A stretch of DNA of 44,407 nucleotides from positions 1 to 44,407 of the forward strand of contig JAGHSE010000299.1 in the NCBI GenBank assembly GCA_018066015.1, in the 5' to 3' direction. The first letter of the stretch is position 1. Each line of letters opens with the position of its first letter. The stretch is from Candidatus Colivivens equi (GTDB lineage: Bacteria > Bacteroidota > Bacteroidia > Bacteroidales > Bacteroidaceae). The notes under the pieces were generated by a model. The model worked only from the letters and a program-made list of their open reading frames with translations. It made no database searches and was not told the origin of the DNA. A program made the translations under genes and the position numbers. Below, piece after piece: positions 26,962-44,274 of the stretch.

Positions 26962-27687
26962 ATGAGCAAAATTGTTCTAATCGTCGATTACAATAATATA
27001 TTCATAGCAGACAATTGCACTGCAAAAGAGATAGAATTGACCTTGAAAGATGTCGTTGAACAAGCTCTTCAAGTCTCAGATACAGTTAATGAAATTCTCA
27101 TTAGAATTTACGAGGGGTGGTATCAAGATGAAAAACTAACAGATAGGGGCTCTTCTATAATGTCTAAGTTTGCACAGATAGAACCATTCCCTAATGTATA
27201 CAAAGGGAAATCTATTGTTGGTAATATTGACTTTGTTGAACAAATTTATGGAATTGATTTTCCATGGAGAAATACATATAGAGAAAAACCTGGACCAAGA
27301 CTTATCATAAAAAAAGATGTTCATCGTCCACATTGTCCTAACAATAAGGACAAATGTCCAGTTGAATTATTAGCTAAATTTACGAAGAAGAAAGAAAAAG
27401 TATGCCATGTGGATGGGTGCAATGTGAATAACATGAGTGTTTTCTCTCAATATGGACAGAAGATGGTCGATACTATGGCATGCGACATATTAACGTATGG
27501 CGAAGAAGAAGATACTGCGGCTATTTATGTTTTAACAGACGATGTCGATTTGTTTCCATCAATAGCCCTTTGTAGTAGGAAAAATCCTAATGTAAAATTA
27601 TATATTGGAACAAAAAATAATAAACATGTCCAAGAATGTGATGTGTTAAATAATAATTTCGGAATTACAACATTTTTATTAGTATGA
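26962..27687 (+). CDS. NYN-domain (LabA-like/PIN-like) predicted nuclease with a Cys/His-rich insert
   Basis: IVLIVDYNNIF (N-terminal Asp strand) and QKMVDTMACDILTYGEEEDTAAIYVLTDDVDLFPSIA match the NYN pattern QKGVD...D...vSgDsDf.P. The insert is HRPHCPNNKDKCP...CHVDGC. The stop overlaps the next ATG (ATGA). Confidence 0.7.
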   Translation: MSKIVLIVDYNNIFIADNCTAKEIELTLKDVVEQALQVSDTVNEILIRIYEGWYQDEKLTDRGSSIMSKFAQIEPFPNVYKGKSIVGNIDFVEQIYGIDFPWRNTYREKPGPRLIIKKDVHRPHCPNNKDKCPVELLAKFTKKKEKVCHVDGCNVNNMSVFSQYGQKMVDTMACDILTYGEEEDTAAIYVLTDDVDLFPSIALCSRKNPNVKLYIGTKNNKHVQECDVLNNNFGITTFLLV

Positions 27688-29985
27688 CACCAGAAGCATT
27701 TGAAAACATTAAACGTGATCTGGCTTCATTTGCCGATGACGAACATGAGATGGTCTGTGACGAACGTGGCAATGTTATTTTCGAACGCCATGGACAATTG
27801 CTAAGTATTCAATTACGAGAGGATGAAGACGGTCGAAAATATGTAAAGTATAACGGTGTGGAGATACCATACCGTCTTTTCCTAGCTAAAGAACTCTCTC
27901 ATCTGGATATATTGGCATCTAAAATACTTCAAAGAAAATATTCTGAGGAACAATGCTATGTGGATTCAAATGTTATGTTAATGAGCATTGACCAGCAAAA
28001 ACAAGGTAAGGCCATGTCTATACTATATGAGGAAAGCAATAATCCTGCATTAATTGGTACAAAAATCAGTTTTGTAACAGCAGATGCAGGACACGGCAAA
28101 TCTATGCTTTTAAGGCATTTTCAGTATTGTCAAGCACAGCATTATCTTGACAACTCTACTAACTTTTTGTTTTGGCACATTGATTTACACGGACGAGATT
28201 TAGTGCGCCTAAATGAAGCCATCATGTATGAACTAGGAGAATTGAGAATGTCTGGGTTGTACTTTTCTTCAATATTAACATTAATGCGCCACCATCTTAT
28301 TGTTCTTGGAATAGATGGTTTTGATGAGTTGGCAGCAGAGAAGGGTGGTGAAACAGCACTTAACTCTTTGTCAAATCTGGTATCACAGATGCGAGGTAAA
28401 GGTGTCCTTATCGCTGCATCAAGAAGAGCTTTTTTTAACTCACAAGATTATTTGCGAAGAACAGGGATTTTAAATCGTAATATTGGTGGGGGATGTCTTT
28501 TTAACGAAATTAAAATAAGCAATTGGCAAAAAGAACAATGTGTTGAATATCTTAACAAATACACGTTTGACACAAACGAATATGACAACTTGCTTATGGC
28601 TTTAAAGAGTGACAAGCATCCGCTTCTTGAACGTCCGTATTTATTTACGAAATTAGTTCACTATTCATTTGAAGACAATATAAATCCATCAGAATTCATC
28701 AACAAGAAAGGACATAATAATCTTGAAAACATCAACGATGTTATTGAGGCGTTTATCTATAGAGAAGTTGATAAATGGACACAACGAGACAAAGAAACGG
28801 GTAAACCATATCTTAGTTTTGAACAGCATATTCGTCTTTTATCTGAAGTTGCTGCTGACATGTGGAACCGACAAAAAAAACACAATCTCTGTAGAAAACC
28901 TTCAGCTGATATTAACAATACTCTTTGATGAATGGAAGACAGACCTCCAATTGCAACCTATTATTTTGCGAATGGTGGAATCGCATGCCATGCTTATTAA
29001 TGTTGAGAACAGGGATTCTTACAGAAAATTTGATCACGAAGAGTTTAAAAATTTTTTCTTAGCAAGAGCTTTAGAGGATATTATAAGACATTCTTTGAAC
29101 GACAATAACAATAGAGAATTATATAAGTTCTTATATGTTGCACAATTACCAGATACTGTGGCTCAATATATATCTACACGATTCATTCCAGAAGAAATCA
29201 TGCCTGTAATCAAGATTTTGAAGGATATCCGTAAAAAGGAGTGGAAACCAACATATATTCAAAGTAATATTGGTACTGTATTGCCTTTCTTGCTTAATGG
29301 TTTCTTTCCTACAGAAACTATAATAATTGATGGAAAAATTAGTTTTTCTAGTTTGGTTTTTGAAAATAAGAGGATAGAAAACGTATTATTTCGTGATTGC
29401 ACATTTGTTAATATCAGTTTTAACAAGACATATTTTAAAAATGTGCATTTTGATAATTGCACTTTTACAGGTATTGTAATCACGAGTGAAAGCAACAATT
29501 TCAAAGAATCAAGTATTCATGATAATTGTATTATTAATATGGTATCAGTCGCTCACCCCAAAGACGAGAACTTGGAAACTGAATACTCTCCTCATGCTAT
29601 ATTTAATATTTTACAAAATTTAGGTATTCAAATTGAATATGTTCAATCTAATAAGCCAGAAGAGAACTCTGTATGTACGACGGAGTTTTACAAGAATGTT
29701 AAAAGGCTTCTAAATCGGTATTCCAAAACGACATGCCTTCTTGAATCAAACATAAAGCAGTCACCATTATTTAATTTTAAAAATCCTGACATGATTATAA
29801 ACGATATTATACCATTGTTAGAAGAATATGATATCATTGAAATAAGAGAGAACAGAAAAACTCGTCAAGCAGGAACACGGGCATGGGCTTTAAAACAATA
29901 CGACATATCTGAGGTTTTCAAAGCAGAGGAAGAAAAAGGTTCTAAACTTTGGTATTTTTGGGAGAAAGTGAAACAACATGAATAA
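27684..29985 (+). pseudogene. NACHT-family STAND NTPase with C-terminal pentapeptide repeats, interrupted by a frameshift in an A8 tract (track ORFs 27684-28928 and 28723-29985)
   Basis: Walker A is FVTADAGHGKSML, Walker B is LIVLGIDGFDEL, and the sensor region is VLIAASRRAF. The NACHT wHTH motif RKFDHEEFKNFFLARAL lies in the second ORF. Phe occurs at every fifth residue in FRDCT FVNIS FNKTY FKNVH FDNCT FTGIV. Removing one A from 28873-28880 joins ...DMWNRQK to NTISVENLQL... in frame. Confidence 0.8.
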
Positions 29986-30816: not shown

Positions 30817-31116
30817 TCACTTATTGTTCAACAACATCATTCCTTTTATCGTCAGCAAATATCGTTGGCGTGGATGATGTGGGTTCTCTGGGTACTTCAT
30901 GCGCACAAATCCTTCATTAATGGCAGGTGTGAGTGAATAATCGAGGAAGTTAGGACGGTTCTTCAAACCTACGGCTTCCATCATACTCTTCACGTTCATT
31001 TCTTCTTTGCCGATTGCTAATACCAAGTGTCTTACATTATCTGATGAAGGCTGTATATCGTTTTGAACTTGTATGGGTGGTTGTATGGGTATCGTCCTAA
31101 TCTTCTTTATATTCAA
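30817..31116 (-). CDS. Small winged-helix DNA-binding protein, resembling the C-terminal wHTH of Fic / AlbA_2-ATPase proteins
   Basis: ...MMEAVGLKNRPNFLDYSLTPAINEGFVRMKYPENPHHPRQRYLLTIKG. Its start overlaps the Fic stop by 20 nt. Confidence 0.55.
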   Translation of the reverse strand: MNIKKIRTIPIQPPIQVQNDIQPSSDNVRHLVLAIGKEEMNVKSMMEAVGLKNRPNFLDYSLTPAINEGFVRMKYPENPHHPRQRYLLTIKGMMLLNNK

Positions 31117-31936
31117 TCAGCATATAGCGATTCTTCAGTTCATTATTCTCACCGAGCAACAGATTACGGAAGAACTTCACGAGGAAAGATTTGTCTGGTT
31201 GTATGCCTTTCTGTGGATTACGATAATTGGCGCGTACCAGGGCGTTACGGAAGTACCAGGAGTTGTCGGCAAAAAGTTCATTGTTTACCTTGAAACCGCA
31301 AGAACGCAGATACTTTATTATGAATACCGCTGTTGTTCGAGTATTACCTTCGCGGAACGGATGATTCTGCCAAAGCAAAGTCACAAAGTCCACAACATGC
31401 GAGATAATCTCATCTGATGTCAAGCCTTTGTAACTGAAATCACGCTCCGTCTGTATGTCATATTTCAATGCGGCATGAATGTCTGCAGCACGTCCATACA
31501 CAACCGTATCTCCTTGCAATACCCACTCCTTTTTACTGATGTCAAAAGGTCGGATTTCGCCAGCGTGCTTAAAGATGCCCTCAAACAGATGGCGATGGAT
31601 ATTCAGAAATTCTAAAGGAGTAAATGAGAATGACTGCTCATTCAGCAATTTCGTAATATTTGCAGCAACACGATCTGCCTCTTCCTTTTCTGCATCATCA
31701 GCATCGTGCGTTGTCTTGTTTACATAGTATGAGCGAAGTTGTTCTCTCACCTCATCAATGGTGATGTCACCCTCAATGTGCCTTACCGCTGTCTCTTTTA
31801 GATATTCGGACACACGAAGTCCATCTACGTCTTGAAGTCCTATCGCAGTACGCCAAGCCGAGATTCTCTCACGCTTATGTGGTTCTGCCACACGTTCGTA
31901 AGCTTCGAAGTCAATATATTTCTGCTTTTCGCTCAT
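31097..31936 (-). CDS. Fic/DOC-family protein with a variant active-site motif
   Basis: HPFREGNTRTTA, against canonical HPFx(D/E)GNGRxxR. The N-terminal helical region (AWRTAIGLQDVDGL...EGDITIDE) resembles VbhA-type antitoxin modules. Confidence 0.8.
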   Translation of the reverse strand: MSEKQKYIDFEAYERVAEPHKRERISAWRTAIGLQDVDGLRVSEYLKETAVRHIEGDITIDEVREQLRSYYVNKTTHDADDAEKEEADRVAANITKLLNEQSFSFTPLEFLNIHRHLFEGIFKHAGEIRPFDISKKEWVLQGDTVVYGRAADIHAALKYDIQTERDFSYKGLTSDEIISHVVDFVTLLWQNHPFREGNTRTTAVFIIKYLRSCGFKVNNELFADNSWYFRNALVRANYRNPQKGIQPDKSFLVKFFRNLLLGENNELKNRYMLIEYKED

Positions 31937-31955: not shown

Positions 31956-32504
31956 TTATAACGTTTTATCTGTTACTTTATTCTCATATACTGTAGGAAT
32001 CTCCTCTGCAGCTATCAGTGGCTCTTCCTCTGGTATCTCATAGTGCCTGATGCTATGGTCTTGCAGGAATATCTTGTTGAGCGTAAAGCCCAGCGATTCC
32101 AGCGTTTTCTCACGTACCTTCGTTTTCAACTCACATTCCCAGATGGTGATGGAGTGCCACCCCATCGCAGCCAGTTCATGCTGCACTTTCAAGTCCCGCT
32201 CCTGGTTCCTCTGTATCTTTGCCACCCAAAATTCACGATTCGTTTTCGGTATCTTGCAGCATTCAGAACTTTCAAGTGCTTGCATATCAACGTGATGGCC
32301 ATGCCAGAAGCAACCATTTACAAAGATGCAAGTGCGGTACTTACGAAGAACCAAATCAGGATGGCCAGGTAACCGCTTATGGTTAAGCCTGTATCTGAAT
32401 CCTCGTTTCCACAACCCACGACGCACAATCATTTCCGGTTTCGTGTCCTTCGACCGAATGGCAGCCATATTCTTATGGCGTTGCTGTGTGGTGAGTCTGT
32501 CCAT
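31956..32504 (-). CDS. vsr: Very-short-patch repair endonuclease
   Basis: RSKDTKPEMIVRRGLWKRGFRYRLN...PGHPDLVLRKYRTCIFVNGCFWHGH is the canonical Vsr core. Confidence 0.9.
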   Translation of the reverse strand: MDRLTTQQRHKNMAAIRSKDTKPEMIVRRGLWKRGFRYRLNHKRLPGHPDLVLRKYRTCIFVNGCFWHGHHVDMQALESSECCKIPKTNREFWVAKIQRNQERDLKVQHELAAMGWHSITIWECELKTKVREKTLESLGFTLNKIFLQDHSIRHYEIPEEEPLIAAEEIPTVYENKVTDKTL

Positions 32505-32505
32505 A

Positions 32506-32940
32506 TTATTTCAAGGTTTCAATCAGTTCATCTATTGAACAGCATACGCCACTGAACAACTTGTACATCAGTTCCGGCTCCAGACATTCAGGTATATAGG
32601 CGATAGTGGTACGTCCTTTGCCAGCAAAACAGCCAGCCTCAGTGTGAGCGCTCCTGCCGCAGGGCAATACCAATACACACGTATCGCAAGCCTCCATTGC
32701 CTTGATATCGTTCTTGAACTGCCACATAGCATAAGGATGCTGCAACATATCACGATACTTCTGTGGCGACCATTCCATATAGTCCTCGCTGACGCTACTC
32801 CACTTAAATCCAGGGTCACCCGATGGCGGATTACGGAAGTCATACACTTCGTGTCCGACCTCCCTCAACCTGGCCAGTACCTCAGAGTAATACCCATTGC
32901 GCCAACTGCTAGCTACATATATCTTTCTTTGAGTCATCAT
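32506..32940 (-). CDS. Nucleoside 2-deoxyribosyltransferase-like (N-glycosidase fold) protein
   Basis: KIYVASSW... and ACDTCVLVLPCGRSAHTEAGCFAGKGRTTIAY fit the Nuc_deoxyrib_tr pattern cD..v.l....S.G...E.G.a.g.GK. ATGA-coupled to the helicase gene. Confidence 0.5.
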   Translation of the reverse strand: MMTQRKIYVASSWRNGYYSEVLARLREVGHEVYDFRNPPSGDPGFKWSSVSEDYMEWSPQKYRDMLQHPYAMWQFKNDIKAMEACDTCVLVLPCGRSAHTEAGCFAGKGRTTIAYIPECLEPELMYKLFSGVCCSIDELIETLK

Positions 32941-34685
32941 TTTATTATTGTAGCTATAAGGATATTTGAGTTCACATCTCGTTTTTCCTTCACATTTTTC
33001 ACGAAAAGCTCAAATCCCCAGCACTCATTTTCTTCTGCATCTTTTGTTCTTTTAGTCTTTATTTGTCCAGCAATTTCAGCTTCTAGGAAGAAAGGATAAT
33101 CGTAAACATCAAATATCACCTTTTTATATTGTCTGACTACGAATGGACAATGACCATTATATTCGTCGCGATAGTTCCAATCGCAGTCAATATCTTTAAA
33201 TGCTTTTTGTACTATCCACCTGCCTCTTTTATTCATAAAGATCTTTTCAGCAAGGCTTCTGTCTGCAATTGCCCTATGACACTTCTTCTTAGTGCCGTTT
33301 TTATAACTTAGATAGGTTCTGTATGATATTCTAATTTTTAAGGGAGAACGTTCCACATCATTGGGCTCCAACTCTTCTGGCAGGTTTATATTACCTTTCC
33401 TGTCGAAACTTTTTAAATATAGTTCCACCTTTGGATCTGCATTAATCTTTTGGATAGGAATCTGGGATAGTAAGTGTATTCCATTCAGATTGGTACACCT
33501 GCTTAAGGCGACATATACTTGCCCATACGTAAATGCATCTGATGCTTCAATGGCCAGCTCGTCAAATGTAAGGCCTTGACTCTTGTGAATGCTGACAGCC
33601 CAAGCCAGTTTAATTGGGTATTGCTTAAACCAACCTTTAACTCGAGTCTTTATCTCCTTCGTTTTTTCATCGACATAATATTCATTCTGTTCCCATTTTG
33701 CTTCTTTTACGTCAACAAGCACCCCTTTGTCAGTACTAACTTTTATTATCTGATAGTTAATCTCTTCAACCCATCCTAAAGTTCCATTCTTATATTCGCC
33801 GAAATCATTATCATTTCTTTGAAACATTACTCTGGCTCCTCTTTTTAAAAAGAGTTCTTCAGGAACAGGAGTTTTTTCTCCATACCATCCTTTTTTCTCT
33901 CCTTTATAATAATAGCATTTTGTGCGTAATTTGTTAAACAGGAAGTTATCGTTCCAATCATCTGCTGTTTTATTATGAGTCATTAATGTTACGATATTCT
34001 CTTTTACCTTCGGCCTATAATTCGACTCTATGCGTTCATCTAGCAAATTAATATCATCTTTGGTCACCTTTCCTTTCCTTATATGGTTGAGCATTGATAT
34101 GAAGATTGGATCATCTTGTCTGTATATAACCTTTAGTTCTACCATCTTGTAACTCAACTTTTGTAGTGCTTTACAAGAAAAGAAATAAAGAGAATCGTTG
34201 TAATACTTACTCAGCTTCTCCTCCTCTTCTCTTTTAGCTACAGGACTGAGTTGGTACAGGTCGCCAAACATTACCAGTTGAATACCGCCAAATGGCTTCT
34301 TAGATTTCCTATAATAGCGCAGTACTTCATCAATAGCATCCAGCATGTCACATCTTACCATGCTTATTTCGTCGATAATCAGCAACTCTAATTTTTTAAC
34401 GACTGCTATGCCACCAGAATCTAATTGATATATATCCTTATTTATATGACCAGGCAGATACAAAAACGGCTTAAAGCCGAAAAAATGATGAATAGTGGAA
34501 GCCTTCACATTTTCAGCAGCTACCCCTGTCGGTGCAAGAACTGCAAGTGCTTTTTTACTTTGAAGTTCATCAACGATTTTTCTGAGCAGGGTGGATTTTC
34601 CAGTTCCTGCTTCACCTGTAATAAAAAGGTTTTCCCCCTTTTTTACAAGATTGAAAGCTCGCTTGTTATATCTGTCTATCTCCAT
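32937..34685 (-). CDS. Pif1/RecD-like SF1B helicase with a roughly 150-aa uncharacterised C-terminal extension
   Basis: FITGEAGTGKSTLL (Walker A), LLIIDEISMV (Walker B), HKSQGLTFD, YVALSRC. The tail from about residue 430 has no motif I recognise. Confidence 0.85.
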   Translation of the reverse strand: MEIDRYNKRAFNLVKKGENLFITGEAGTGKSTLLRKIVDELQSKKALAVLAPTGVAAENVKASTIHHFFGFKPFLYLPGHINKDIYQLDSGGIAVVKKLELLIIDEISMVRCDMLDAIDEVLRYYRKSKKPFGGIQLVMFGDLYQLSPVAKREEEEKLSKYYNDSLYFFSCKALQKLSYKMVELKVIYRQDDPIFISMLNHIRKGKVTKDDINLLDERIESNYRPKVKENIVTLMTHNKTADDWNDNFLFNKLRTKCYYYKGEKKGWYGEKTPVPEELFLKRGARVMFQRNDNDFGEYKNGTLGWVEEINYQIIKVSTDKGVLVDVKEAKWEQNEYYVDEKTKEIKTRVKGWFKQYPIKLAWAVSIHKSQGLTFDELAIEASDAFTYGQVYVALSRCTNLNGIHLLSQIPIQKINADPKVELYLKSFDRKGNINLPEELEPNDVERSPLKIRISYRTYLSYKNGTKKKCHRAIADRSLAEKIFMNKRGRWIVQKAFKDIDCDWNYRDEYNGHCPFVVRQYKKVIFDVYDYPFFLEAEIAGQIKTKRTKDAEENECWGFELFVKNVKEKRDVNSNILIATIIK

Positions 34686-34706
34686 ATGAATTCAAAACTT
34701 AGACTT

Positions 34707-35033
34707 TCAGGTAGCATTATCTTGTTTTAGGATACCAATTGTTGAATACTGAGAATCATATCGTTCCGTATGGGTATCATAGGGGACATTCTTTATTGAA
34801 GGATCTAATTGGCTGCTATCTAATTCCCTATTTATATCAATCTCAACACATACATATCGTTTGGCTGTTGACTGGACCAAATAATATCCCTCTTGAAGAG
34901 CCATTTCTTTCAGCAAGAGTGTAAGTTCCTTTACCAAGAGTTTGTTCAACTCCAGTTCATCACCTTTAACATGCTGAAAAGCGGCACGATCAGGACGCAT
35001 TGCAAGCACGCACTCTACATAAAGTCCGTTCAT
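34707..35033 (-). CDS. Hypothetical small protein (108 aa from the preferred start)
   Basis: The preferred ATG at 35033 (MNGLYVECV) forms an ATGA overlap with the DUF5131 stop; the track start is 35069. No recognisable domain. Confidence 0.5.
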   Translation of the reverse strand: MNGLYVECVLAMRPDRAAFQHVKGDELELNKLLVKELTLLLKEMALQEGYYLVQSTAKRYVCVEIDINRELDSSQLDPSIKNVPYDTHTERYDSQYSTIGILKQDNAT

Positions 35034-35773
35034 TGTTTGCCTCCTTTCTCCTTCGGCAGTTCCTGACAAACCTTACCTTCAAGCAATTTGCCGTTTACGT
35101 GCTTGTTGCTCTTTACTCCGTCCTTGCTCCACGTTCCCCATTGCTTAAAGAAGAAAGGCACCTTGGCAGCATTCGCCTGGCGCTTGATGTTCAGCACCCA
35201 CGCCTCCTGCATAGGACGAGCCTTCACGCCACTCTCGCCACCAACAATCACCCATTCAATGCCTTCAAGATTCATTTCTCCAAGGTCGCTGAGCAGTGGT
35301 TCGCACGAAAGGAAATGTACGGTTGCAGGAATCTGACGCAGATAATCCATGCGGAACTTTGTGCGCTCTTCCTCAACCGTCACACCGAGCCAAGCATTAG
35401 CAGGAGCCTTGCGAGTGGCAAAGTATTCAGCCATACGTTCGGCTCGTTTGGTCAGTATTTGGTAACGATGCTGAGGCGTTTCAGCTATCGTCTGCATCAC
35501 TTTGTCCACGAACTCAAAAGGAACATCCTTATGGAAAAGGTCGCCCATTGAACAAACAAATACCATCGACTTCGCACGCCACTTCTTTGGCTCGTCAAGG
35601 TCTTCGGGGTGGAGCGTCAAAGCAAAACCATTCTGATACTTTGGCTTGTGCATACCCTTCAATCTACAAGCCATCACCTCCGCGTAACAGTTACGACAAC
35701 CCTCTGATTGCTTCGTACAACCAGTAACAGGGTTCCATGTCTTATCTGTCCATTCTATCTTCGATGTAGCCAT
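35030..35773 (-). CDS. Phage Gp37/Gp68-family (DUF5131, COG4422) three-Cys-motif protein
   Basis: KIEWTDKTWNPVTGCTKQSEGCRNCYAE, FVCSMGDLFH, YQILTKR, FLSCEPLL, WVIVGGESG and FFFKQWG all match the family consensus as I know it. Confidence 0.85.
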   Translation of the reverse strand: MATSKIEWTDKTWNPVTGCTKQSEGCRNCYAEVMACRLKGMHKPKYQNGFALTLHPEDLDEPKKWRAKSMVFVCSMGDLFHKDVPFEFVDKVMQTIAETPQHRYQILTKRAERMAEYFATRKAPANAWLGVTVEEERTKFRMDYLRQIPATVHFLSCEPLLSDLGEMNLEGIEWVIVGGESGVKARPMQEAWVLNIKRQANAAKVPFFFKQWGTWSKDGVKSNKHVNGKLLEGKVCQELPKEKGGKQ

Positions 35774-35775
35774 AC

Positions 35776-36957
35776 TTAATCGTGATTTACAAAAGTGAGT
35801 ATGCAGTTGTCGTTGATGAGAACGCTTACCACGTGTTTCTTGTCATCGGTAAATCGTGACTGCAAAGCTCCCTTGCTGTAGAGTGAGCGCAAAGCCATTG
35901 CATAATGCATACGGCAGAACTTGGTTTCCTTCTGCTCATCGTCAAACAGCTTCTGAGCACTTATCGTTTGATTAGCGTACTTCTTCCACAACTCCTCTGC
36001 AAGCTTGTCGATTGGTGCCTGCCGCAACTCCTCTTCAAACATGCTCGGTGGACGGTTATCCATCTTCGCATCGAAGGTGTAAGTGTTGCTTTCCGCATCA
36101 AAGGCTGCACCTACATTGTCGAAGTCGTTGTAAATCTGCTTAATCAGTTCGTAACCTTTAGGACCTTTCGTGATGTGCAGAATGAAGTGACTTGTAGTGT
36201 TGATGTCTTCCTCCTGGAACTTAAAGGCTGTATAGAATACGTGTCCTAACTTACGTTTGAACTCTTCGCCTATACCATTGATGATAACCTGAAGCCTTTC
36301 GCCAAGTGTCCTCTTTGTGCGTATGTCTGCCTTAACTTGATCAAATGTAGTGGGGAGAAGGTTGCGAAGGTCTTCCTCAAATTTGGAGTTATCAAGTGCA
36401 GGATTGATACGCTTCGAATTGATAAAGATGAACACCTCGTTGCCCCAACTCTTCATGAAGTCGGTGAGCACGTCTGTATGTATTGCCTTGTAACCAAAAG
36501 GGTCGATGAACAAAACAGAAGGGCATTCGTTGAACACTCTGCCACTTTGATTCTGCTTCATCCAACTTCTGCGCAGGAACTTGTCTATCTTTGGCTCTTT
36601 GCCCACCTCGCTGTGACCGAAATGAGGACGGAACCCAAAGTCAGAGTCATTGAAACGCTGATAGAAGTTTTCTCTCAGCTTTTCCGACCAATTCACATCG
36701 TTGAACACCATCCACAAGCGTTGGCGCAGAAATTCCATACGATGACAGTTGCGAGCCAACAAAATAGGTGTTGACTCCTGACCGTCCTCATACACACCAG
36801 GGCCAGAGAAAAGGTCAAAGTGCCCAAACCGCTCAGGCATGTGCTTCGAGGCAATAATCTGACAGTAGTGTGGGAAATACTCCGACACTATCATTGCCTT
36901 AATCCTCGAATTGGCCTTCTGCTGGTCAAAGAAATGTATATTGTCGTTTGATGCCAT
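35776..36957 (-). CDS. Three-Cys-motif partner protein (TcmP-like), methyltransferase-fold-like
   Basis: It sits directly upstream of DUF5131 with a 2-nt gap. The N-terminal pattern K...IVSEYFPHYCQI...FGHFDLFSGPGVY parallels the TcmP consensus (...YL..Y..I...Y.DaFAGtG). SVLFIDPFGYK resembles an MTase motif IV. Confidence 0.6.
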   Translation of the reverse strand: MASNDNIHFFDQQKANSRIKAMIVSEYFPHYCQIIASKHMPERFGHFDLFSGPGVYEDGQESTPILLARNCHRMEFLRQRLWMVFNDVNWSEKLRENFYQRFNDSDFGFRPHFGHSEVGKEPKIDKFLRRSWMKQNQSGRVFNECPSVLFIDPFGYKAIHTDVLTDFMKSWGNEVFIFINSKRINPALDNSKFEEDLRNLLPTTFDQVKADIRTKRTLGERLQVIINGIGEEFKRKLGHVFYTAFKFQEEDINTTSHFILHITKGPKGYELIKQIYNDFDNVGAAFDAESNTYTFDAKMDNRPPSMFEEELRQAPIDKLAEELWKKYANQTISAQKLFDDEQKETKFCRMHYAMALRSLYSKGALQSRFTDDKKHVVSVLINDNCILTFVNHD

Positions 36958-37383
36958 TTAATTCCTTTCTTGATTGGGAATGAATCTTAATCTTGTAAAC
37001 TGTTCATTGTCTTTATCCTTAACAACGTCAACCATCGTTAAACCGTGTTGCATGATGTCTTGCCCGATAAGCACGTGTTCATTCAAATTTGTACTTAAAT
37101 TCACCAGCACTTGACTCAGTTCAAAACACCCACTATCCGGCATTATGATGACGCAATGTGCTGTAGATAAAGACGCATCGCCGTTAGCTGTTGTTGCGTA
37201 GCCCCTACCGTGCATTTGCAATTCGAGAGCTTCCGCAACATCTTTTGATATGCAAGTTTGAGTAGCTCCTGTATCCCAGATGGCATCCTGCACATCTAAA
37301 AACTTCCCGTTGCTCTCATTTCCAATGCGTACTTTCAGAAACGGGCGTTTGTCTTTTGTATGTGGGGTTAATGATTCAAACAT
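36958..37383 (-). CDS. Retropepsin-like (clan AA) aspartic protease
   Basis: AIWDTGATQTCIS (DTGA active site) and HVLIGQDIM (flap/ILG-like motif) in a 141-aa protein. It abuts the TcmP-like start with no gap. Confidence 0.65.
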   Translation of the reverse strand: MFESLTPHTKDKRPFLKVRIGNESNGKFLDVQDAIWDTGATQTCISKDVAEALELQMHGRGYATTANGDASLSTAHCVIIMPDSGCFELSQVLVNLSTNLNEHVLIGQDIMQHGLTMVDVVKDKDNEQFTRLRFIPNQERN

Positions 37384-37411: not shown

Positions 37412-39979
37412 CTATTTTTCTCTATCGGCAACAAGAATCGGAATCAGCGATGCTGCTTCTTCGAGGTAGTCTTCTGCATTCTCGCCAAAGAGAATCTCTG
37501 CCCACACCTTATCAACATTACGAACTTCTGGTGAACGGAGGTTGATAAAGTCTGAAATAGGAGTGCTAATGATTCGTTGAATCTGCTCCTCGGTGAAGCG
37601 TCCTGTCAAAGGAACGTGAAGAGGTTCGTAGTCACGCTGCTCCAATTTTCGAAGTCCTTTGCGGTTATTGCCGTAGGCTTCGCATTCTAATTGATAGAAC
37701 ACAGTAGAGAACCAAGATGCAAGAAGCTTTGATCGCTGTTCGTCTGCCTCTATCACGAAGAAGTTCGTGGATACGTATGTTGTCTTATCGCTTATGAATA
37801 CACGTCCTGTACTTCTAAGCATTCGAGGAAGCATTACGCAATGTGCAGGAGAAAAATGGTCGCTTTCCATTTTCAGAATCTCTACATACTCATCTGCTGA
37901 TTTTTTATCTTGACGTTGTTTCTTGTTGTTGGTAACGTCAGCTTCAAGGAATGCCTTGGCAACTCTCTTGATTTGTCGGTCAGACATACCTTGAACATTG
38001 AAGAAGTACGATTCGCCTTTACCTATGTAAACTTTTTCACCTTTTGCATTGTTTAAGCCTACTGCAAGATGCCCTCTGAGCATGTTCTTCCCTGTTTTCA
38101 GGAATGGATCATTTTCTTTCAAATACAAAAGATATGTGCAACCTTTATTTCCTACTTTACCACGAAGATAATTTTTGTACTCACTATCTTTCAGTGGAAT
38201 CAAATAGGGTGAAGTTGCAATGTTTGCCTTAACGAAGTTCTGAGCGTCTTGCCTGCTCATATTTCCAATCTGCCATCCTGATTCAAGCGTAGATTCGAGT
38301 TCTCCTTTGCTTAACAAGCTGCCTTCAAAGTGATTGTCTATGTTGGCTATCCCTTCCGAACAAAACTCCTGTGCAAGAACAGATGCAATATCAGTTGGAT
38401 CGATGAGAGAAACCACTTCGTTGCAATACAAGTAGCGCACATTTTTAGATGGTTGCCCTTTAATGCCAATTACGATTGAAGTGTTTTGAGCGACACCCTC
38501 AAAGAGTTTCTCCTGTGGATAGTTGAAGATTAATTGTAATCCGAAATCATTGAGGAGCATTCTACGAATAGCTACTGATGCCTCGCCTTTGGTTGTAAAA
38601 TGAGTATTAGGAAGAATTGCCGCAATAACAGTTCCTTCTTTGGCAAGAGCAGAAACAAGTTCTACGAAGGCTCCTTCAAGCGGCATTTGACCAACGTTAG
38701 TAGTCGGTGCTTCACCTTTCAACTGACGTATTCTTCGGTATAATTCTGCCTTACGCTGAGTACAATTGACGCCAACAGCAGAAAGATAAGGAGGATTCAT
38801 AACAACACACTTTACATTGTCAAAATCTCCAGAGGGAACATCGGCGATATTGAGGGTAGTTATCGTTGCTGTGTTATGCTTGTCTATCGTCTTTGCAAAC
38901 TTCAATCCAATTCGTAGTGACAAAAGCTGAAGGAGCTTCACATTTATATCATTCGCTACCAATTGTTTCGGTTGAATGCCTTCAAACACGTTGGTTGCTG
39001 CACAAAGTAGGCTTCCGCTTCCTGCAGCAGGATCCATTATCTTGTCATTTTCTGTAAGATTTCCGCTGATACACTTGACAAGCCATAGCATGATAGTTGC
39101 GAGTTCGGGATCAGTAGGAACTTCACCTTCGTGCTCATGCCCATTTGAGATTACCTTGTGCATAACGCTGGCCAATTCGTCTGCGTCAACGTAAGTTTTA
39201 CCAAGTTCAAAAAGTTGTTCAAGAAGCTCATTAGGGGTTTCAAGTGCGCGATCATTTGCCGGGAGATTAGGCAAGGTAAAGATATCCTTGAAATTTATCT
39301 TGGAACCTTCGTTGCAGATCAAATCAGCTCTCCTCGAAAGTTGAGCAATTGTTTTCATTCCTGGACGTTCAATCTTTGAGAACGAACCACGAATGTATTC
39401 ATAGAATAAGCCAACAAGAGCTTTCTTCCATTCCGTATCAGTGTCCATCTTGTCTTGAATCTCATCAGCAAATTGCTTGAACGATAGTAAATAGTGTCCA
39501 TCGTTATTGATGATGGTGTTCAAGAATCCCACGTACTGCTCAATGAGGTCAGCCATAAACACTTCCTTGGTTACATCAGCAAAATGATGGTTGATGACGA
39601 TTCCTGGCTCTATGATCTGCTCATAAACATTAGGCCGATTGCGGTCGAACTTGAATAGGCAAGATGCTTCAAGATTGGTGAGAATGTAGTAGTTGCTTTC
39701 CAACTCTGCTTCACGCAATGATTGAACATAACTCATCGCTTGATATTGGTAGCGAGTACTATTTACCGCAGCAACTGTACGCTTTACTTCAACAACACAA
39801 AGAATCTTGTTGTCGATTTTGTTTGCAATCACCAAGTCCATTTCAATGGAACCTACATAGCGATGATGTTGAACCTCGTAACGGTCATCAAGGTTCAATC
39901 TCACAAGTGCAGCATTTAATGCTTCTTCACATACGGGATGGAAGCATTCAACCTCTCTATCTGTATTCTTTAGCCACAT
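37412..39979 (-). CDS. Fused PD-(D/E)xK nuclease-like N-terminal domain + gamma-class N6-adenine (NPPY) methyltransferase; type IIG-like restriction-modification enzyme
   Basis: N-terminal IEMDLVIAN...LCVVEVKR (D...ExK, HSDR_N-like). IMDPAAGSGSLL (motif I). CVVMNPPYL (motif IV). A long C-terminal putative target-recognition region. I prefer ATG 39979 (MWLKNTD) over the track start at 40027, which overlaps dcm by 41 nt. Confidence 0.7.
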   Translation of the reverse strand: MWLKNTDREVECFHPVCEEALNAALVRLNLDDRYEVQHHRYVGSIEMDLVIANKIDNKILCVVEVKRTVAAVNSTRYQYQAMSYVQSLREAELESNYYILTNLEASCLFKFDRNRPNVYEQIIEPGIVINHHFADVTKEVFMADLIEQYVGFLNTIINNDGHYLLSFKQFADEIQDKMDTDTEWKKALVGLFYEYIRGSFSKIERPGMKTIAQLSRRADLICNEGSKINFKDIFTLPNLPANDRALETPNELLEQLFELGKTYVDADELASVMHKVISNGHEHEGEVPTDPELATIMLWLVKCISGNLTENDKIMDPAAGSGSLLCAATNVFEGIQPKQLVANDINVKLLQLLSLRIGLKFAKTIDKHNTATITTLNIADVPSGDFDNVKCVVMNPPYLSAVGVNCTQRKAELYRRIRQLKGEAPTTNVGQMPLEGAFVELVSALAKEGTVIAAILPNTHFTTKGEASVAIRRMLLNDFGLQLIFNYPQEKLFEGVAQNTSIVIGIKGQPSKNVRYLYCNEVVSLIDPTDIASVLAQEFCSEGIANIDNHFEGSLLSKGELESTLESGWQIGNMSRQDAQNFVKANIATSPYLIPLKDSEYKNYLRGKVGNKGCTYLLYLKENDPFLKTGKNMLRGHLAVGLNNAKGEKVYIGKGESYFFNVQGMSDRQIKRVAKAFLEADVTNNKKQRQDKKSADEYVEILKMESDHFSPAHCVMLPRMLRSTGRVFISDKTTYVSTNFFVIEADEQRSKLLASWFSTVFYQLECEAYGNNRKGLRKLEQRDYEPLHVPLTGRFTEEQIQRIISTPISDFINLRSPEVRNVDKVWAEILFGENAEDYLEEAASLIPILVADREK

Positions 39980-39986
39980 GGTCGTG

Positions 39987-41012
39987 TTACGCATTAAGTT
40001 GTTCATTAAGTTGTGTTGCAAGGACAAATGCTAATTGTGGAGGAACGGCATTGCCAACAATCAGATTCTTGTCTTGCTTAGATTTGCAGACAAATTCGTA
40101 ATCATCAGGAAACGTCTGCAAACGCATTGCCTCACGTAAAGTAATTAATCGATCGTACTTGTAATGGATATTGCATCCGACATTTGGACGATTGAAATAA
40201 GTATTGATAGTGTAAGACGGCTTCTCGGGTAGCATTCTTCCGTAGCAGGTTGTATGACCTCCATCTCGTTTTAATCTTTTGATTCGTACTGAGTCAACTT
40301 CATCGGGAATATCCATATAATTACCGCCAGGTTTTACGTGATGACAAATGTATTGGTCAAGTTTGCTCATCGTTGGGAAACCATGTTCTGTAATGACCTC
40401 CGACTCGCCAGCAAGAGGAAGATCACCAATTGCTTGTTCTACACTTACATATTTCTGCTTACCATCTGTGCCATCTGCATTGTGCGTCGTTTCTGGAAAT
40501 ACGAAATCCTTACCTTTCATGCCAACAATGATTACTCGTTTGCGTACTTGTGGCACTCCATAATCTGCGGCATTTACCAATTTCCACTGCACATTATAAC
40601 CTAATTCGGCAAATGATTTCAGCAGGTTGTCAAGAATCTTGTTACCTTCTTTGTCTTTTGCAGACATCAAACCAACCACATTCTCAAACAAAAAGGCTTT
40701 GGGTGCAACATGCTTGATAATTTCCATGTAACGCCAAACCAATTGCCCTCTGGCATCATCACAATGACGATTACCGGCAAGTGAAAAAGATTGGCATGGA
40801 GGTCCACCGATGACAACGTCAGCTTGCGGAATCTCATTCAAGTTAATGGCTGTAATGTCACCGCATACTATATGATTGCCAACATTCTTACTGTAGGAGT
40901 TTGCGGCATCCTTGTTGTTATCGATTGCCCAGAGGATGTTGTAACCAGCTTTCTTGAAACCAAGATCAAGACCGCCTCCACCGGAAAATAAGCTTATCGT
41001 TGTATTAGTCAT
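39987..41012 (-). CDS. dcm: DNA (cytosine-5)-methyltransferase
   Basis: ISLFSGGGGLDLGF (motif I), GGPPCQSFS (IV), FLFENV (VI), GNAVPPQLA (X). Confidence 0.95.
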   Translation of the reverse strand: MTNTTISLFSGGGGLDLGFKKAGYNILWAIDNNKDAANSYSKNVGNHIVCGDITAINLNEIPQADVVIGGPPCQSFSLAGNRHCDDARGQLVWRYMEIIKHVAPKAFLFENVVGLMSAKDKEGNKILDNLLKSFAELGYNVQWKLVNAADYGVPQVRKRVIIVGMKGKDFVFPETTHNADGTDGKQKYVSVEQAIGDLPLAGESEVITEHGFPTMSKLDQYICHHVKPGGNYMDIPDEVDSVRIKRLKRDGGHTTCYGRMLPEKPSYTINTYFNRPNVGCNIHYKYDRLITLREAMRLQTFPDDYEFVCKSKQDKNLIVGNAVPPQLAFVLATQLNEQLNA

Positions 41013-42468
41013 GATTACTTAACCTTTCTTGTTTTGAGTTTTCAAATTCTTGTTGAGCATTCTCTGTACCGTAGTATTTGTTCAGCACATTTGTGATATT
41101 TGTGACAATCTCCTCGTCTGTCGTGGCTATCAAATTTTCAGCAAACCGTATCAAGTCTTGTTTGTCTTCATCGGTAATGAGACTTGGATGGGGAATCTCG
41201 ATAGCATCAATGTCGTACTTTTGAAGTTTTAACAACCCTTTTCCGTAAGTTTTGCCACATTTTTCAAGTTGCAAAAACACATGGTAATTGTTTAAAAGTG
41301 CCATCAAGAGAAGGGGATTCTCTGTCTTTGCACTTATCATATAGAAATTGTCACGAACATTTCTTCCCCCCTCATTTAGAACAAACTTAATGTTGTTGCG
41401 TATAATGTAGGAGAAAATTATTTGTGCACTTGGGGGCATAGTGATGGAGTACCAGTTCTGACCGTTCTCTATTAGCGTCTTCAGCGTTTGAGGTTTTCCT
41501 TCTTTTAAGATAACCATTGCACAGTTTTCCAAGTAGGTGAGTTCCTCATCGTTTGCCTCTTTTTCAGAAACGATTACCAACAACTTGTCTTGTTTGCATT
41601 TCTTGGTTGTGTAGCCGTAGAAATCTTTAGGTGAAGAAAGAATGTCAATTAGGTGATCCTGTGTGAACAAAGACGGATTAACAAAAAACTTATTGGCACC
41701 AGTTGTAACTCCTCTTCTGATATTTGCGATAGTATGTAGTTTCACCAAACCATCCTGTTTCCTAGTTTGTTCATTAGAAGATTCCACTACGGTGTAAGTT
41801 TCCCCTTTAACGAGCATTTTCTGGTAATTTGTTCCACTAATAGTGTTGCGTTTGAATTTGAGGATGCACACATCAACCATAGGCGAACCTACGAACGGGT
41901 CTCCTGTTACATTTATGAAATCAGTTATGCATCCATAATGGCCGATTTGTTCTCTGAATTGTTTGCCTACTGGGGTATTCGTCCATGAGTTCGGGAAAAT
42001 CGCTATCAACTCACCACCATCTTTCAGCAACAGAATTGCCCTCAAGATGAAATACATGTATAGATTAGCTTTTGTCGAGATAGTCATTAAGCCACATGCA
42101 GATTGAAGTTTCTGCTTAGTAACACCCAATTCTGCCATAGCGTCAATTTCCTCTTGTCGAACGTAAGGAGGATTCATGATAATTCCATCAAATTCTTCCT
42201 CAATATCAAAGAAATCACAATTAAGCAACTGACATCTTGCAGAATTGGGATTCGTAAACTTATCAAAAGAATCCTTATCAATTTCAACGCCCTGCACCTT
42301 ATGGTTTGTGTTTGCCAACAGACTTTCAATAAACACACCTCCTCCGAAGCATGGGTCAAGCACCCTTGCTCCGTCAACAATGGTAAACAGATTAACCATG
42401 TAATCTGCGATGGTACGTTTTGTATAAACTTGTCCGAGGTTCATTTGATGATGTGCGGATTTATCCAA
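41005..42468 (-). CDS. N6-adenine DNA methyltransferase (Eco57I/TaqI-like gamma class) with a C-terminal target-recognition domain
   Basis: GQVYTKRTIADYM, VLDPCFGGGVF (motif I), GIIMNPPYV (motif IV). 8-nt overlap with dcm. Confidence 0.85.
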   Translation of the reverse strand: MDKSAHHQMNLGQVYTKRTIADYMVNLFTIVDGARVLDPCFGGGVFIESLLANTNHKVQGVEIDKDSFDKFTNPNSARCQLLNCDFFDIEEEFDGIIMNPPYVRQEEIDAMAELGVTKQKLQSACGLMTISTKANLYMYFILRAILLLKDGGELIAIFPNSWTNTPVGKQFREQIGHYGCITDFINVTGDPFVGSPMVDVCILKFKRNTISGTNYQKMLVKGETYTVVESSNEQTRKQDGLVKLHTIANIRRGVTTGANKFFVNPSLFTQDHLIDILSSPKDFYGYTTKKCKQDKLLVIVSEKEANDEELTYLENCAMVILKEGKPQTLKTLIENGQNWYSITMPPSAQIIFSYIIRNNIKFVLNEGGRNVRDNFYMISAKTENPLLLMALLNNYHVFLQLEKCGKTYGKGLLKLQKYDIDAIEIPHPSLITDEDKQDLIRFAENLIATTDEEIVTNITNVLNKYYGTENAQQEFENSKQERLSNHD

Positions 42469-42573: not shown

Positions 42574-44274
42574 TTATTCTACATTTATGGCACTTACTTT
42601 TAGAAGACAATGCAATACAGACAGAGCTGTTTGAATGTTATAATCGCCCGACGAGGTGAAACCGTGAGCTATGTTATTACGAAGATTCCACCCCTGCTTG
42701 GTGAGTATTGCCAACAGCATCTTTTGAGTTCGTGGCGATATTAGAGCACTTCCTTCTGGGCACTTCCGTTTTGCCATTTTGTCAAGCAATTCTTCCAACA
42801 GGATCTCATTGTGCGATGGTGTTACAGTTGCGATGTTAACCCTTCTGCAAGCATCACGAATGCAGCCTTCAATCTTCATCGTCAGCGAATCAATGGCACA
42901 GACGTAGTCACCTTTGTATTTTCCTTCACTTTCCACTTCCGCTTGAATTTCCGTAAGTAGTAATTTAAGAGCTGGTGAAATGGTTGTCATCCAAGATTCA
43001 TGAGTTTCCTGAAGGCTTGCATTTACTGGTATTCGAGGTTCCCCGAACCACGTTTGATTGAAGTAATCAACAATGGTATCGTAGGAAAACTTTTTCATTT
43101 CGATAAGTGAACGGAGGGTAATCATAATTGTGGTGATTGTCAGTATTGTATAATTTTGTGAATAAGATTGTAGTTGCCTATGTTTCTTCTCATACTCCAT
43201 CCAATCATGCGGATTGCCATTATTGTCAAATTTGTACATAGAAATGCCAAGGCGTTTGAGTTCCGCGAATGGGTCAAATGCATCGCCATCTGTTGCCGGG
43301 ATCAATCGGTCATCTGTAGCTAATGCGTAAAAGGGTGATTCTGCTGACAACAAGATGTTCTTGAATGGTTGAAATGCTTCGTTAGATATTGATACTTGAT
43401 GTGTGAAATGCTGCAATCCTCTACCACTTGACTTAGCGTCCATGAAGAGTTTATAACATTCCTGTGCCTCGTCCTCACGCTCAGCAGCAAGAAGATACTC
43501 GTATTTGGCGTATAACCATTTTGCATCAAATACAGAATAGGGCTTTCGCACAAGCTTTTTGTCTTGGTTCTTTGCCAAAGCTACATATAATGGTTTGAGA
43601 ACTGCTTTTTCGGATGTTCCATAGCAATGAATGAGGGTTTCATAGAACTCTTGGTTGGTAAAATAGTTATCTGTCAGATTACCAACAATATTGGACTCAA
43701 CTGATAGAGAAATTGTTTCCTGCGCTGACAAGTATCCATATTTTCTTAGCATCGTCAGAGTGCAAATCTTGTCATCCAAATCCGACGATTGAATAAACCC
43801 AAGTACAGCATCGTAGGTTTCTTCTTTCAAAACTCTGTACTTCTCGCTGTTGTAAATCAAAGAGCGCAGAACATTCAGATAATCAAAACGGTGGTATTGT
43901 TTGTGATTCTTCAGTACGCAGATGTAATCTTGCACCAACATCCTTGCGTACTTGCCGTTAGGTTTCGCCTGAGCATTACTAATAACGTCAGCATAAAACC
44001 CACGAATGAGCGGATTTGTGAGCACACCAAGTCGATGCTTCTCCAGGAAACTCATTTCTTCCTTGCTTAAAGGCTCGTTCATCTTGACAGAGAAGGGTTT
44101 ATAATCTTTTGATAATGATCTGTGTTCCCAATTACAACAAAGCACCTTGATGTCTGCGGTAGTGAGCTGATTGGTGAATTCTTCAGAGACTTCATCAAGC
44201 AATTCCATGTTGGTTAAATCGAGACGATCGATTGAGTATGTAAGCGAATCCAATTTATCGAAGAATGATAGCAT
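42574..44274 (-). CDS. DUF4209-like protein with a C-terminal HEPN-type Rx4H motif
   Basis: WNLRNNIAHGF near the C-terminus matches the DUF4209 hallmark RNxxxHG and the HEPN Rx4-6H pattern. The rest is alpha-helical with no motif I recognise. Confidence 0.6.
   Translation of the reverse strand: MLSFFDKLDSLTYSIDRLDLTNMELLDEVSEEFTNQLTTADIKVLCCNWEHRSLSKDYKPFSVKMNEPLSKEEMSFLEKHRLGVLTNPLIRGFYADVISNAQAKPNGKYARMLVQDYICVLKNHKQYHRFDYLNVLRSLIYNSEKYRVLKEETYDAVLGFIQSSDLDDKICTLTMLRKYGYLSAQETISLSVESNIVGNLTDNYFTNQEFYETLIHCYGTSEKAVLKPLYVALAKNQDKKLVRKPYSVFDAKWLYAKYEYLLAAEREDEAQECYKLFMDAKSSGRGLQHFTHQVSISNEAFQPFKNILLSAESPFYALATDDRLIPATDGDAFDPFAELKRLGISMYKFDNNGNPHDWMEYEKKHRQLQSYSQNYTILTITTIMITLRSLIEMKKFSYDTIVDYFNQTWFGEPRIPVNASLQETHESWMTTISPALKLLLTEIQAEVESEGKYKGDYVCAIDSLTMKIEGCIRDACRRVNIATVTPSHNEILLEELLDKMAKRKCPEGSALISPRTQKMLLAILTKQGWNLRNNIAHGFTSSGDYNIQTALSVLHCLLKVSAINVE

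Follow-up and report, generated by a model that had tools for sequence, protein, structure and literature searches.

TcmP/DUF5131, a conserved gene pair within a mosaic restriction-modification island of Candidatus Colivivens equi

The gene pair encoding TcmP and DUF5131 (Gp37/Gp68; PF07505) is already catalogued, in TIGRFAMs as family TIGR04474 and in PADLOC as the candidate system PDC-M30. Here, we analyze a copy of this pair in a 44,407-nucleotide stretch of Candidatus Colivivens equi, a member of the Bacteroidaceae (GenBank assembly GCA_018066015.1, contig JAGHSE010000299.1, positions 1 to 44,407; the whole stretch is termed the window). The pair lies within a run of six minus-strand open reading frames (ORFs) at 32506-37383, all of which are present with the motifs quoted in a preliminary description of this DNA. 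That description treated the six genes as one functional unit. Comparison with related loci shows the run to be a recombination mosaic of at least three unrelated modules inside a Bacteroidaceae restriction-modification (R-M) and defence island. This mosaic architecture, combined with TcmP/DUF5131 as a conserved, putatively nucleic-acid-modifying pair, is probably the best joint explanation of the data.

No biochemical activity had been attributed to the pair in the preliminary description. In line with this, a literature search under the names PF07505, TIGR04474, Gp37/Gp68 and PDC-M30 found no published function and no paper demonstrating an activity. Literature on spore photoproduct lyase (SPL) and phage defence, or on a ‘radical SAM mobile pair’ (SAM, S-adenosylmethionine), likewise yielded no functional study of the two proteins together. 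Compared with the catalogued TIGR04474 and PF07505 pair, the window pair itself is no different: its genes are adjacent and co-directional, both products score above the hidden Markov model cut-offs, and the three-cysteine motif is intact. The window departs from its relatives in two clade-specific genes, encoding proteins of 234 and 233 amino acids (aa), which are truncated and lost, respectively.

The described enzymes closest to each protein differ from it in several respects. SPL is the closest structural match of the DUF5131 model. The protein gp53 of phage M6, an SPL-like radical SAM enzyme that remodels a DNA base after replication (PMC8989533), shows that such enzymes can install DNA modifications. 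In contrast to the CX3CX2C motif of SPL, DUF5131 carries CX6CX2C at its extreme N-terminus; it is also about 100 aa shorter, shares only 12-14% sequence identity, and has no conserved fourth cysteine to correspond to the hydrogen donor C140. While SPL and gp53 act alone, DUF5131 partners with a methyltransferase-fold protein. For TcmP, the closest enzymes are Trm1 (tRNA m2,2G26) and RlmJ (23S rRNA m6A2030), with which its model shares a class I Rossmann fold and the G-x-G loop of motif I. However, there is no detectable sequence similarity, and TM-scores are just 0.33-0.53. Unlike Trm1 and RlmJ, TcmP has an extra helical insertion and a C-terminal winged helix-turn-helix (wHTH) domain, and is strictly linked to a radical-SAM-like partner. 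In its genomic setting, the pair resembles accessory genes embedded in R-M loci, such as PrrC in the EcoprrI hsd locus and Vsr with Dcm: in gut Bacteroidales it lies within or just downstream of type I, II, IIG and IV R-M sets. Unlike PrrC and Vsr, neither protein has an anticodon-nuclease or endonuclease domain, and the R-M linkage is not universal across phyla.

Mosaic architecture of the six-gene run

The run is divided between two blocks of DNA with different relatives. Block A (34919-37058, minus strand) contains the genes for TcmP (35776-36957, minus strand, 393 aa) and DUF5131 (35030-35773, minus strand, 247 aa). In blastn searches it aligns at 78-95% DNA identity with comparison loci L003-L008, L026, L109 and L112-L117. 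Block B (32125-34893, minus strand), which spans genes for a helicase, a nucleoside-2-deoxyribosyltransferase-like (Ndt-like) protein and Vsr, aligns at 76.5% with L015-L019. Homology to the relatives of block A stops at 34908-34933 and homology to those of block B begins at 34893, so that the edges of the two blocks define a recombination junction at 34893-34927 (no strand).

The gene content of these relatives is equally distinct. Loci related to block B contain no TcmP, DUF5131 or protease gene, and are ordered as Dcm, a 194-aa gene, a McrB-like AAA_5 gene, a 777-aa DUF2357/PDDEXK_7 gene, helicase, Ndt-like gene and Vsr, with a helicase 87% identical to that of the window. In the closest relatives (83-98% identity for TcmP, 78-98% for TcmP/DUF5131), TcmP and DUF5131 are always followed by a 233-235-aa gene and then a 233-aa gene; none of the 108-aa ORF, the helicase and the Ndt-like gene is found in their contigs.

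The fourth gene of the run records the join between the blocks. This ORF (34707-35033, minus strand, 108 aa counted from ATG) matches no family and had been listed as a component of the cassette. By tblastn and alignment, its first 43 residues match the N-terminus of the 234-aa protein found after DUF5131 in relatives (81-93% identity), and residues 37-103 match the last part of the 777-aa DUF2357/PDDEXK_7 (McrC-like) protein (70-72% identity); the portion derived from the latter gene is residues ~45-103. It spans the join of two truncated genes and is therefore an in-frame fusion rather than a component of any system; these alignments identify it as a chimera created by recombination.

Three modules can be distinguished on this basis. 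The first is TcmP and DUF5131, from a four-gene block that is cut within its third gene in the window. The second is the Pif1-family helicase, which arrived attached to the final ~60 codons of a McrC-like nuclease gene; the chimeric 108-aa ORF was created in frame at this join. The third is the Ndt-like gene and Vsr, a conserved pair that would serve the Dcm of the BpuSI-like R-M system described below.

As noted previously, the genes are tightly packed. Spacings of 0 nt (protease to TcmP), 2 nt (TcmP to DUF5131), -4 nt (DUF5131 to the 108-aa ORF, overlapping at ATGA), 21 nt (108-aa ORF to helicase) and -4 nt (helicase to Ndt-like gene) were measured, and a further 1 nt separates the Ndt-like gene from Vsr. 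A scan for terminator-like sites between the genes of the run found none, which makes co-transcription plausible; a scan for sigma-70 promoters is uninformative for Bacteroidota. Such spacing is attributable to the operon-like packing of cargo within an R-M island and does not imply that the genes act together. The full six-gene order is seen only on one near-identical contig (L001), and a second contig (L002) is a short identical fragment with the 108-aa ORF, the helicase and part of the Ndt-like gene. Recurrence of the order across genomes bearing the pair, a check named beforehand, was observed in none of 79 other loci. Because the order does not recur in independent genomes, and because the region consists of two DNA blocks, the interpretation of the six genes as a single unit is refuted.

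Conservation and genomic contexts of the pair

In contrast to the run, the pair is conserved. A survey with a diverse TcmP profile, limited to one genome per species, returned 80 loci from the Bacteroidota, Cyanobacteria, Firmicutes, Planctomycetota, Chloroflexi, Acidobacteria, Actinobacteria and Proteobacteria. DUF5131 adjoins TcmP in 78 of them, and the remaining two are contig ends. This bears out the earlier statement that the two genes are a recognized co-occurring pair. At 50% identity, the TcmP family as a whole forms ~1,089 clusters. With the near-identical relative set aside, none of the survey loci (0/79) contains homologues of the helicase, Ndt-like, protease, 234-aa or 233-aa genes. 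The 142 immediate neighbours of the pair fall into 109 Pfam families, none of which occurs in more than six loci; as neighbour families are so scattered, the pair is autonomous, with no constant third partner. Approximately 15% of the immediate neighbours are R-M or defence genes, including N6_N4, Eco57I and MmeI methyltransferases, HsdR/S, SLFN_AlbA_2, DUF3644/PDC-S19 and ThsA.

Within gut Bacteroidales, the pair is always attached to R-M genes and lies directly downstream of methyltransferase genes in all six contexts. In the closest relatives of the window it heads a conserved four-gene block of TcmP, DUF5131, the 234-aa gene and the 233-aa gene, carried intact by, for example, L026, L003 and L109. 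Neither the 234-aa nor the 233-aa protein is matched by any Pfam, PADLOC or PHROG family, and the two are not paralogous. Five different R-M sets are found directly upstream of this block: a D12 methyltransferase; Mrr with MmeI and two Dcm; a PLD nuclease with D12 and N6_N4 methyltransferases; Dcm with a 384-aa protein; and a BpuSI-like set. Five relatives (L003, L005, L026, L109, L112) were compared for the position at which upstream homology ends, set against window positions 36957-36983. In nine of the ten pairs, homology breaks off 0-26 nt ahead of the TcmP start; the exception is L026 and L109, which share upstream DNA. By this comparison, a sharp recombination hot spot for the exchange of R-M cargo lies just upstream of the TcmP start. 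In a clade of 55% identity (e.g. L009), hsdR and hsdS instead flank the pair, and an AAA_13 (PrrC/RloC-like) gene and AbiH lie next to it.

The first gene of the run encodes a retropepsin-like aspartic protease (36958-37383, minus strand, 141 aa) with a WDTGAT motif and a PF13975 match that passes the cut-off (E 4.6e-10). In L005-L008, a remnant of its last 35 codons (74-77% identity) persists upstream of TcmP. Joint Genome Institute metagenomes yielded no relatives, and the gene is absent from other TcmP contexts and from the 79 genome loci. These comparisons make the protease an occasional neighbour on the upstream side of TcmP rather than one of its core partners.

The pair is also associated with mobile elements, with DUF5131 present in 178 phage records and 434 plasmid records. 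In Gordonia phage Fairfaxidum (L106, 32933-34874), DUF5131 (gp42) is convergent with gp43, annotated as ‘methyltransferase’, which profile comparison identifies as a divergent TcmP homologue (hhalign 97.9%). The two genes are located between the serine integrase and the immunity repressor, an interval that is usually the place of prophage-expressed defence genes. In the Pseudomonas aeruginosa megaplasmid pBJ86, an integrase is followed by the pair. Other phages carry DUF5131 within replication modules that have no TcmP. Searches with TcmP by tblastn returned nothing from phages and only three matches from plasmids, since the family is too divergent for this method. A further candidate, gp38 of phage phiE125, is not a TcmP homologue.

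Predicted chemistry and alternative roles

The gene identities proposed earlier were confirmed by Pfam, TIGRFAM, PDB and PHROG matches. TcmP matches TIGR04474 over residues 16-278 (101.6 bits; cut-off 53) and PADLOC PDC-M30A (E 1e-21), and its C-terminus matches PF22560 (GMT-wHTH). DUF5131 matches PF07505 over profile positions 2-243 of 243 (346.5 bits; cut-off 28.9; E 1e-103) and PDC-M30B (E 9e-113). Both components match PDC-M30, so the pair is not unassigned in PADLOC, a possibility that had been raised for the cassette.

Conservation and structural modelling point to a methyltransferase. Across 108 diverse TcmP homologues, K20, G52, G54, D152 and G155 are invariant, and Y46, D48, F85-N86-D87, P146, F150, P153, Y156, N180, R183, H257 and K264 nearly so. 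Motif I, Y-x-DLF-x-GPG, is intact (FDLFSGPG in the window) and is accompanied by a motif IV-like F-x-DP-[FW]-GY (IDPFGY). The DP[FW]G core of the latter resembles the DPFG/DPPY of exocyclic-amine methyltransferases such as Trm1. Sequence searches of the PDB with TcmP and with a profile of the 108 sequences gave nothing significant. In Foldseek searches, an AlphaFold2 model with a predicted local distance difference test score (pLDDT) of 79 matched class I methyltransferases with probabilities of 0.99-1.0 (Trm1, RlmJ, COMT, CmoA). Best among the matches were Trm1 (3axs, E 8e-5), RlmJ (6qe5, TMt 0.53) and the RlmJ-like DUF519 protein 2oo3. According to this model, TcmP has a class I SAM-methyltransferase fold with a C-terminal wHTH domain, and methyl transfer is predicted.

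The evidence on DUF5131 is more modest. In 112 sequences of 32-96% identity, C19, C26 and C29 (C-x6-C-x2-C) are the only invariant cysteines; GGESG (178-182) and six basic residues are also invariant. A PDB sequence search was without significant matches. For the AlphaFold2 model (pLDDT 86), Foldseek ranked SPL 4fhg best (E 2.9e-3, probability 1.0, TMq 0.49) and lipoyl synthase next, with no match reaching E ≤ 1e-3. The best match agrees with the placement of DUF5131 in RadicalSAM.org, where it is included as a subgroup in a megacluster neighbouring SPL (PMC9477430). We infer that DUF5131 is a three-cysteine radical-SAM-like protein with a predicted SPL-like fold.

On the basis of these predictions, we tentatively propose that TcmP and DUF5131 form a two-enzyme SAM/radical-SAM module that modifies a nucleic-acid base, most likely in DNA, during inter-genome conflict; we consider this plausible, at somewhat less than even confidence. 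In this model, TcmP would bind nucleic acid through its wHTH domain and present a flipped-out purine or pyrimidine in a pocket of the Trm1/RlmJ amino-methyltransferase type (DLFxGPG, DP[FW]GY). DUF5131 would be a [4Fe-4S] radical-SAM-like enzyme (CX6CX2C) with an SPL-like barrel, and would perform radical chemistry on the base presented by TcmP. Together, the two would write or process a non-canonical DNA mark. The module travels with R-M systems, plasmids and prophage immunity regions, and the outcome could be either an extra self-mark or anti-restriction mark, or a modification-based anti-phage function. The nucleic-acid-directed role suggested in the preliminary description thus remains plausible from the predicted folds of the two proteins, although not for the six genes as a unit.

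Several considerations weigh against this proposal. Support for the SPL-like fold is modest (E 2.9e-3, TM 0.49), the cysteine motif does not match the canonical radical-SAM CX3CX2C, and the invariant GGESG occurs late in DUF5131, unlike the GGE motif in its usual radical-SAM position. Trm1/RlmJ-type enzymes methylate exocyclic amines of RNA purines; the nearest folds to TcmP are thus RNA methyltransferases, which makes RNA a possible target. Nuclease, sensor and toxin domains that might account for a defence outcome are absent from both proteins, and outside gut Bacteroidales only the ~15% of immediate neighbours given above are R-M or defence genes, as counted in 80 loci for which genes were called with a crude ORF picker. 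In addition, the window copy may be non-functional if the clade-specific system requires the 234-aa and 233-aa genes.

Other explanations of the pair were weighed against the same evidence. It could be a self-contained anti-phage effector that guards or backs up R-M systems in the manner of PrrC in type I hsd operons; upon infection it would damage or modify phage or host nucleic acid, possibly tRNA or rRNA, instead of marking the DNA of its own cell. Its insertion between hsdR and hsdS beside PrrC/RloC-like and AbiH genes is consistent with this, as are its listing as a PADLOC defence candidate, its position in a prophage immunity region and the tRNA and rRNA methyltransferases among the nearest TcmP folds. 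In Sinorhizobium meliloti, moreover, the Hna phage-defence helicase gene SMa2245 and the TcmP gene SMa2243 have adjacent locus tags, TcmP being the next gene listed, and both are up-regulated ~two-fold in a nolR+ background (PMC12445080, Table 1). The absence of a sensor or toxin domain argues against an effector, and the DUF5131 genes that phages carry in replication modules lacking TcmP are more in keeping with DNA metabolism than with abortive infection; we regard the effector explanation as unlikely, though a serious competitor. A repair or housekeeping function in the service of DNA methyltransferases, comparable to that of Vsr for Dcm, is improbable; the pair would then reverse aberrant SAM-dependent alkylation or other base lesions by an SPL-like radical lyase reaction. 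The closest solved fold to DUF5131 is indeed a DNA-repair lyase, DUF5131 occurs within phage replication and recombination modules, and methyltransferase genes directly precede the pair in every gut Bacteroidales context. However, most loci outside the Bacteroidales have no adjacent methyltransferase, there is no known lesion that requires the pair, and TcmP retains a complete SAM-binding motif I and the motif IV-like DP[FW]GY, which suggests transfer chemistry rather than damage recognition.

We consider it very improbable that the pair makes a modified free nucleotide or small molecule rather than acting on polymeric nucleic acid. Prokaryotic viperins provide a precedent for radical SAM enzymes in defence, and the many invariant basic residues of DUF5131 could bind nucleotide phosphates. 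The wHTH domain and base-flipping-type motif IV of TcmP speak against this, as do the best structural matches, which act on nucleic-acid polymers. The original idea, in which the six genes together make up a single helicase-assisted defence system based on DNA base modification or base excision, is extremely unlikely. It has in its favour the tight spacing, the overlaps and the lack of intergenic terminator-like sites, plausible DNA or nucleotide contacts for all six proteins, and phage DUF5131 genes near an Ndt-like gene in 8 of 80 IMG/VR loci. Against this, helicase, Ndt-like and protease homologues are missing from the other pair loci, the order is confined to one near-identical contig and a short fragment, and the fourth ‘gene’ fuses two truncated genes at a boundary between DNA blocks that have separate sets of relatives. 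Vsr, rather than the helicase or DUF5131, is the partner of the Ndt-like gene, and the proximity of Ndt-like genes to phage DUF5131 reflects generic replication modules without TcmP, in which the intervening genes differ.

Accessory cargo of the island and implications

Housekeeping genes (glycoside hydrolases, DnaK) occupy the first 23.5 kb of the window, and the R-M and defence island extends from ~24 kb, after dnaK, to the window end. A complete BpuSI-like system, on the minus strand throughout, lies upstream of the run. Its first gene encodes an Eco57I-like N6-adenine DNA methyltransferase (41005-42468; PF07669 E 1e-16; PADLOC MTase_II E 4e-68). This is followed by a C5-cytosine DNA methyltransferase of the Dcm type (39987-41012; PF00145 E 7e-77; TIGR00675) and a BpuSI-like type IIG R-M enzyme (37412-40027; BpuSI_N E 3e-44, BpuSI_TRD E 2e-37, N6_Mtase; PADLOC REase_MTase_IIG E 2e-139). 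The very-short-patch repair endonuclease Vsr (31956-32504, minus strand; PF03852 E 1e-31; TIGR00632 E 4e-40) is directly downstream of the run. N-terminal nuclease, N6-methyltransferase and target recognition domains, separate methyltransferases and Vsr are thus all present, and the cassette is flanked by DNA methyltransferases and Vsr as previously described. A link to MADS was considered following weak mad2 and mad8 matches and was rejected: the best match is the type IIG R-M enzyme, and the mad8 match covers only a P-loop.

The Pif1-family SF1B helicase (32937-34685, minus strand, 582 aa) has a PIF1 core at residues 8-441 that matches PDB entries 8bns (E 2e-88) and BaPif1 5fhd (E 2e-78), as well as PF05970 (E 4e-30). 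It has more than 8000 homologues, and the best-scoring among the matches listed are full length. The C-terminal domain (approximately residues 442-582, window 32937-33360) is conserved across the family, with E20, L24, G39, F58, D82, G86, P89, F90, Y95, F100 and W131 invariant in tail numbering. This ~140-aa tail has no Pfam match, and a profile of it gives no PDB sequence match. The helicase also occurs in contexts without an Ndt-like gene or Vsr. At L015 (486-7977), the locus that donated block B, it is preceded by PDC-M33B/C-like genes, including DUF6339, and Dcm, and by a McrBC-like pair of AAA_5 (632-aa) and DUF2357/PDDEXK_7 (777-aa) genes. DUF6339 genes like those of L015 accompany a 76%-identical helicase at L020-L025.

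The Ndt-like protein (32506-32940, minus strand, 144 aa) matches phrog_12607, ‘nucleoside deoxyribosyltransferase’, over its full length (E 2.8e-49). Its PF05014 match is weak (E 3e-3) and, at 18.1 bits, does not reach the gathering score of 28.8; nothing significant was found in a PDB sequence search. Homologues number at least 580 among metagenome matches and 190 among viral matches. Neighbourhoods were counted in the 80 closest metagenome loci (rumen/gut; L140-L219). Among the 63 loci that extend far enough to hold it, 50 have Vsr immediately downstream and co-directional; 32 of the 80 have a Dcm gene no more than 6 kb away. A helicase adjoins the gene in just one of 53. In block-B loci, helicase, Ndt-like gene and Vsr travel together without TcmP or DUF5131. 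These counts make the Ndt-like protein a partner of Vsr and Dcm. Dcm creates a need for Vsr repair, and the gene neighbourhoods suggest that the Ndt-like gene is an undescribed nucleotide- or base-processing helper of very-short-patch repair.

In the eight IMG/VR loci mentioned above (L270, L281, L282, L289, L295, L297, L252, L257), a phage-type DUF5131 gene (30-44% identity) is 0.3-5.9 kb from the Ndt-like gene; in seven, it is 0.3-4.3 kb downstream. The surrounding modules encode a beta-clamp, an RNase T-like exonuclease, RusA and a DnaA-C HTH protein, with TcmP not detectable. A functional link between the two genes was rejected, as they are co-located in generic replication modules with differing intervening genes.

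Other parts of the island contain further cargo. At 30817-31936, two ORFs with a 20-nt overlap make up a split Fic gene, one of 279 aa bearing VbhA and Fic domains and one of 99 aa bearing Fic-like_C. The homologous protein is unbroken in L009, L010 and L013 (387 aa), and the split copy is probably a frameshifted pseudogene or an assembly error. At 27684-29985, ORFs for a NACHT NTPase (414 aa) and a pentapeptide-repeat protein (420 aa) share ~200 nt of one strand, and the two may represent a single frameshifted defence gene of the STAND type. The region 42574-44274, immediately before the BpuSI-like operon on its upstream side, encodes a 566-aa protein with a C-terminal DUF4209 (precomputed Pfam label EMARD_N).

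These findings bear on how R-M islands are read. Close packing of genes in such an island does not show that they share a mechanism: cargo is exchanged at sharp breakpoints, and in-frame chimeric ‘unknown proteins’ can even result. The association of the Ndt-like gene with Vsr is a separate small lead on how systems bearing 5-methylcytosine handle deamination products. For the TcmP/DUF5131 pair, which is conserved across phyla, has been flagged since TIGRFAMs and PADLOC, and rides with R-M systems, integrases and prophage immunity regions, the window is a poor exemplar because its block is truncated. Better ones are L026, L003 and L109, with the four-gene block, or L009, where the pair is embedded in an hsd locus. 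It is possible, though on balance doubtful, that the pair constitutes a widespread mobile system in which a methyltransferase-fold/wHTH protein targets a DNA base and an SPL-like radical-SAM subunit modifies it, producing an undescribed mark that works alongside restriction systems or protects against them. The protein family spans ~1,100 clusters (50% identity) in bacteria, archaea, plasmids and temperate phages. If the reading is correct, phage M6 gp53 would be the only earlier case of DNA modification by a radical-SAM route, and the pair would be the first such case in cellular genomes.

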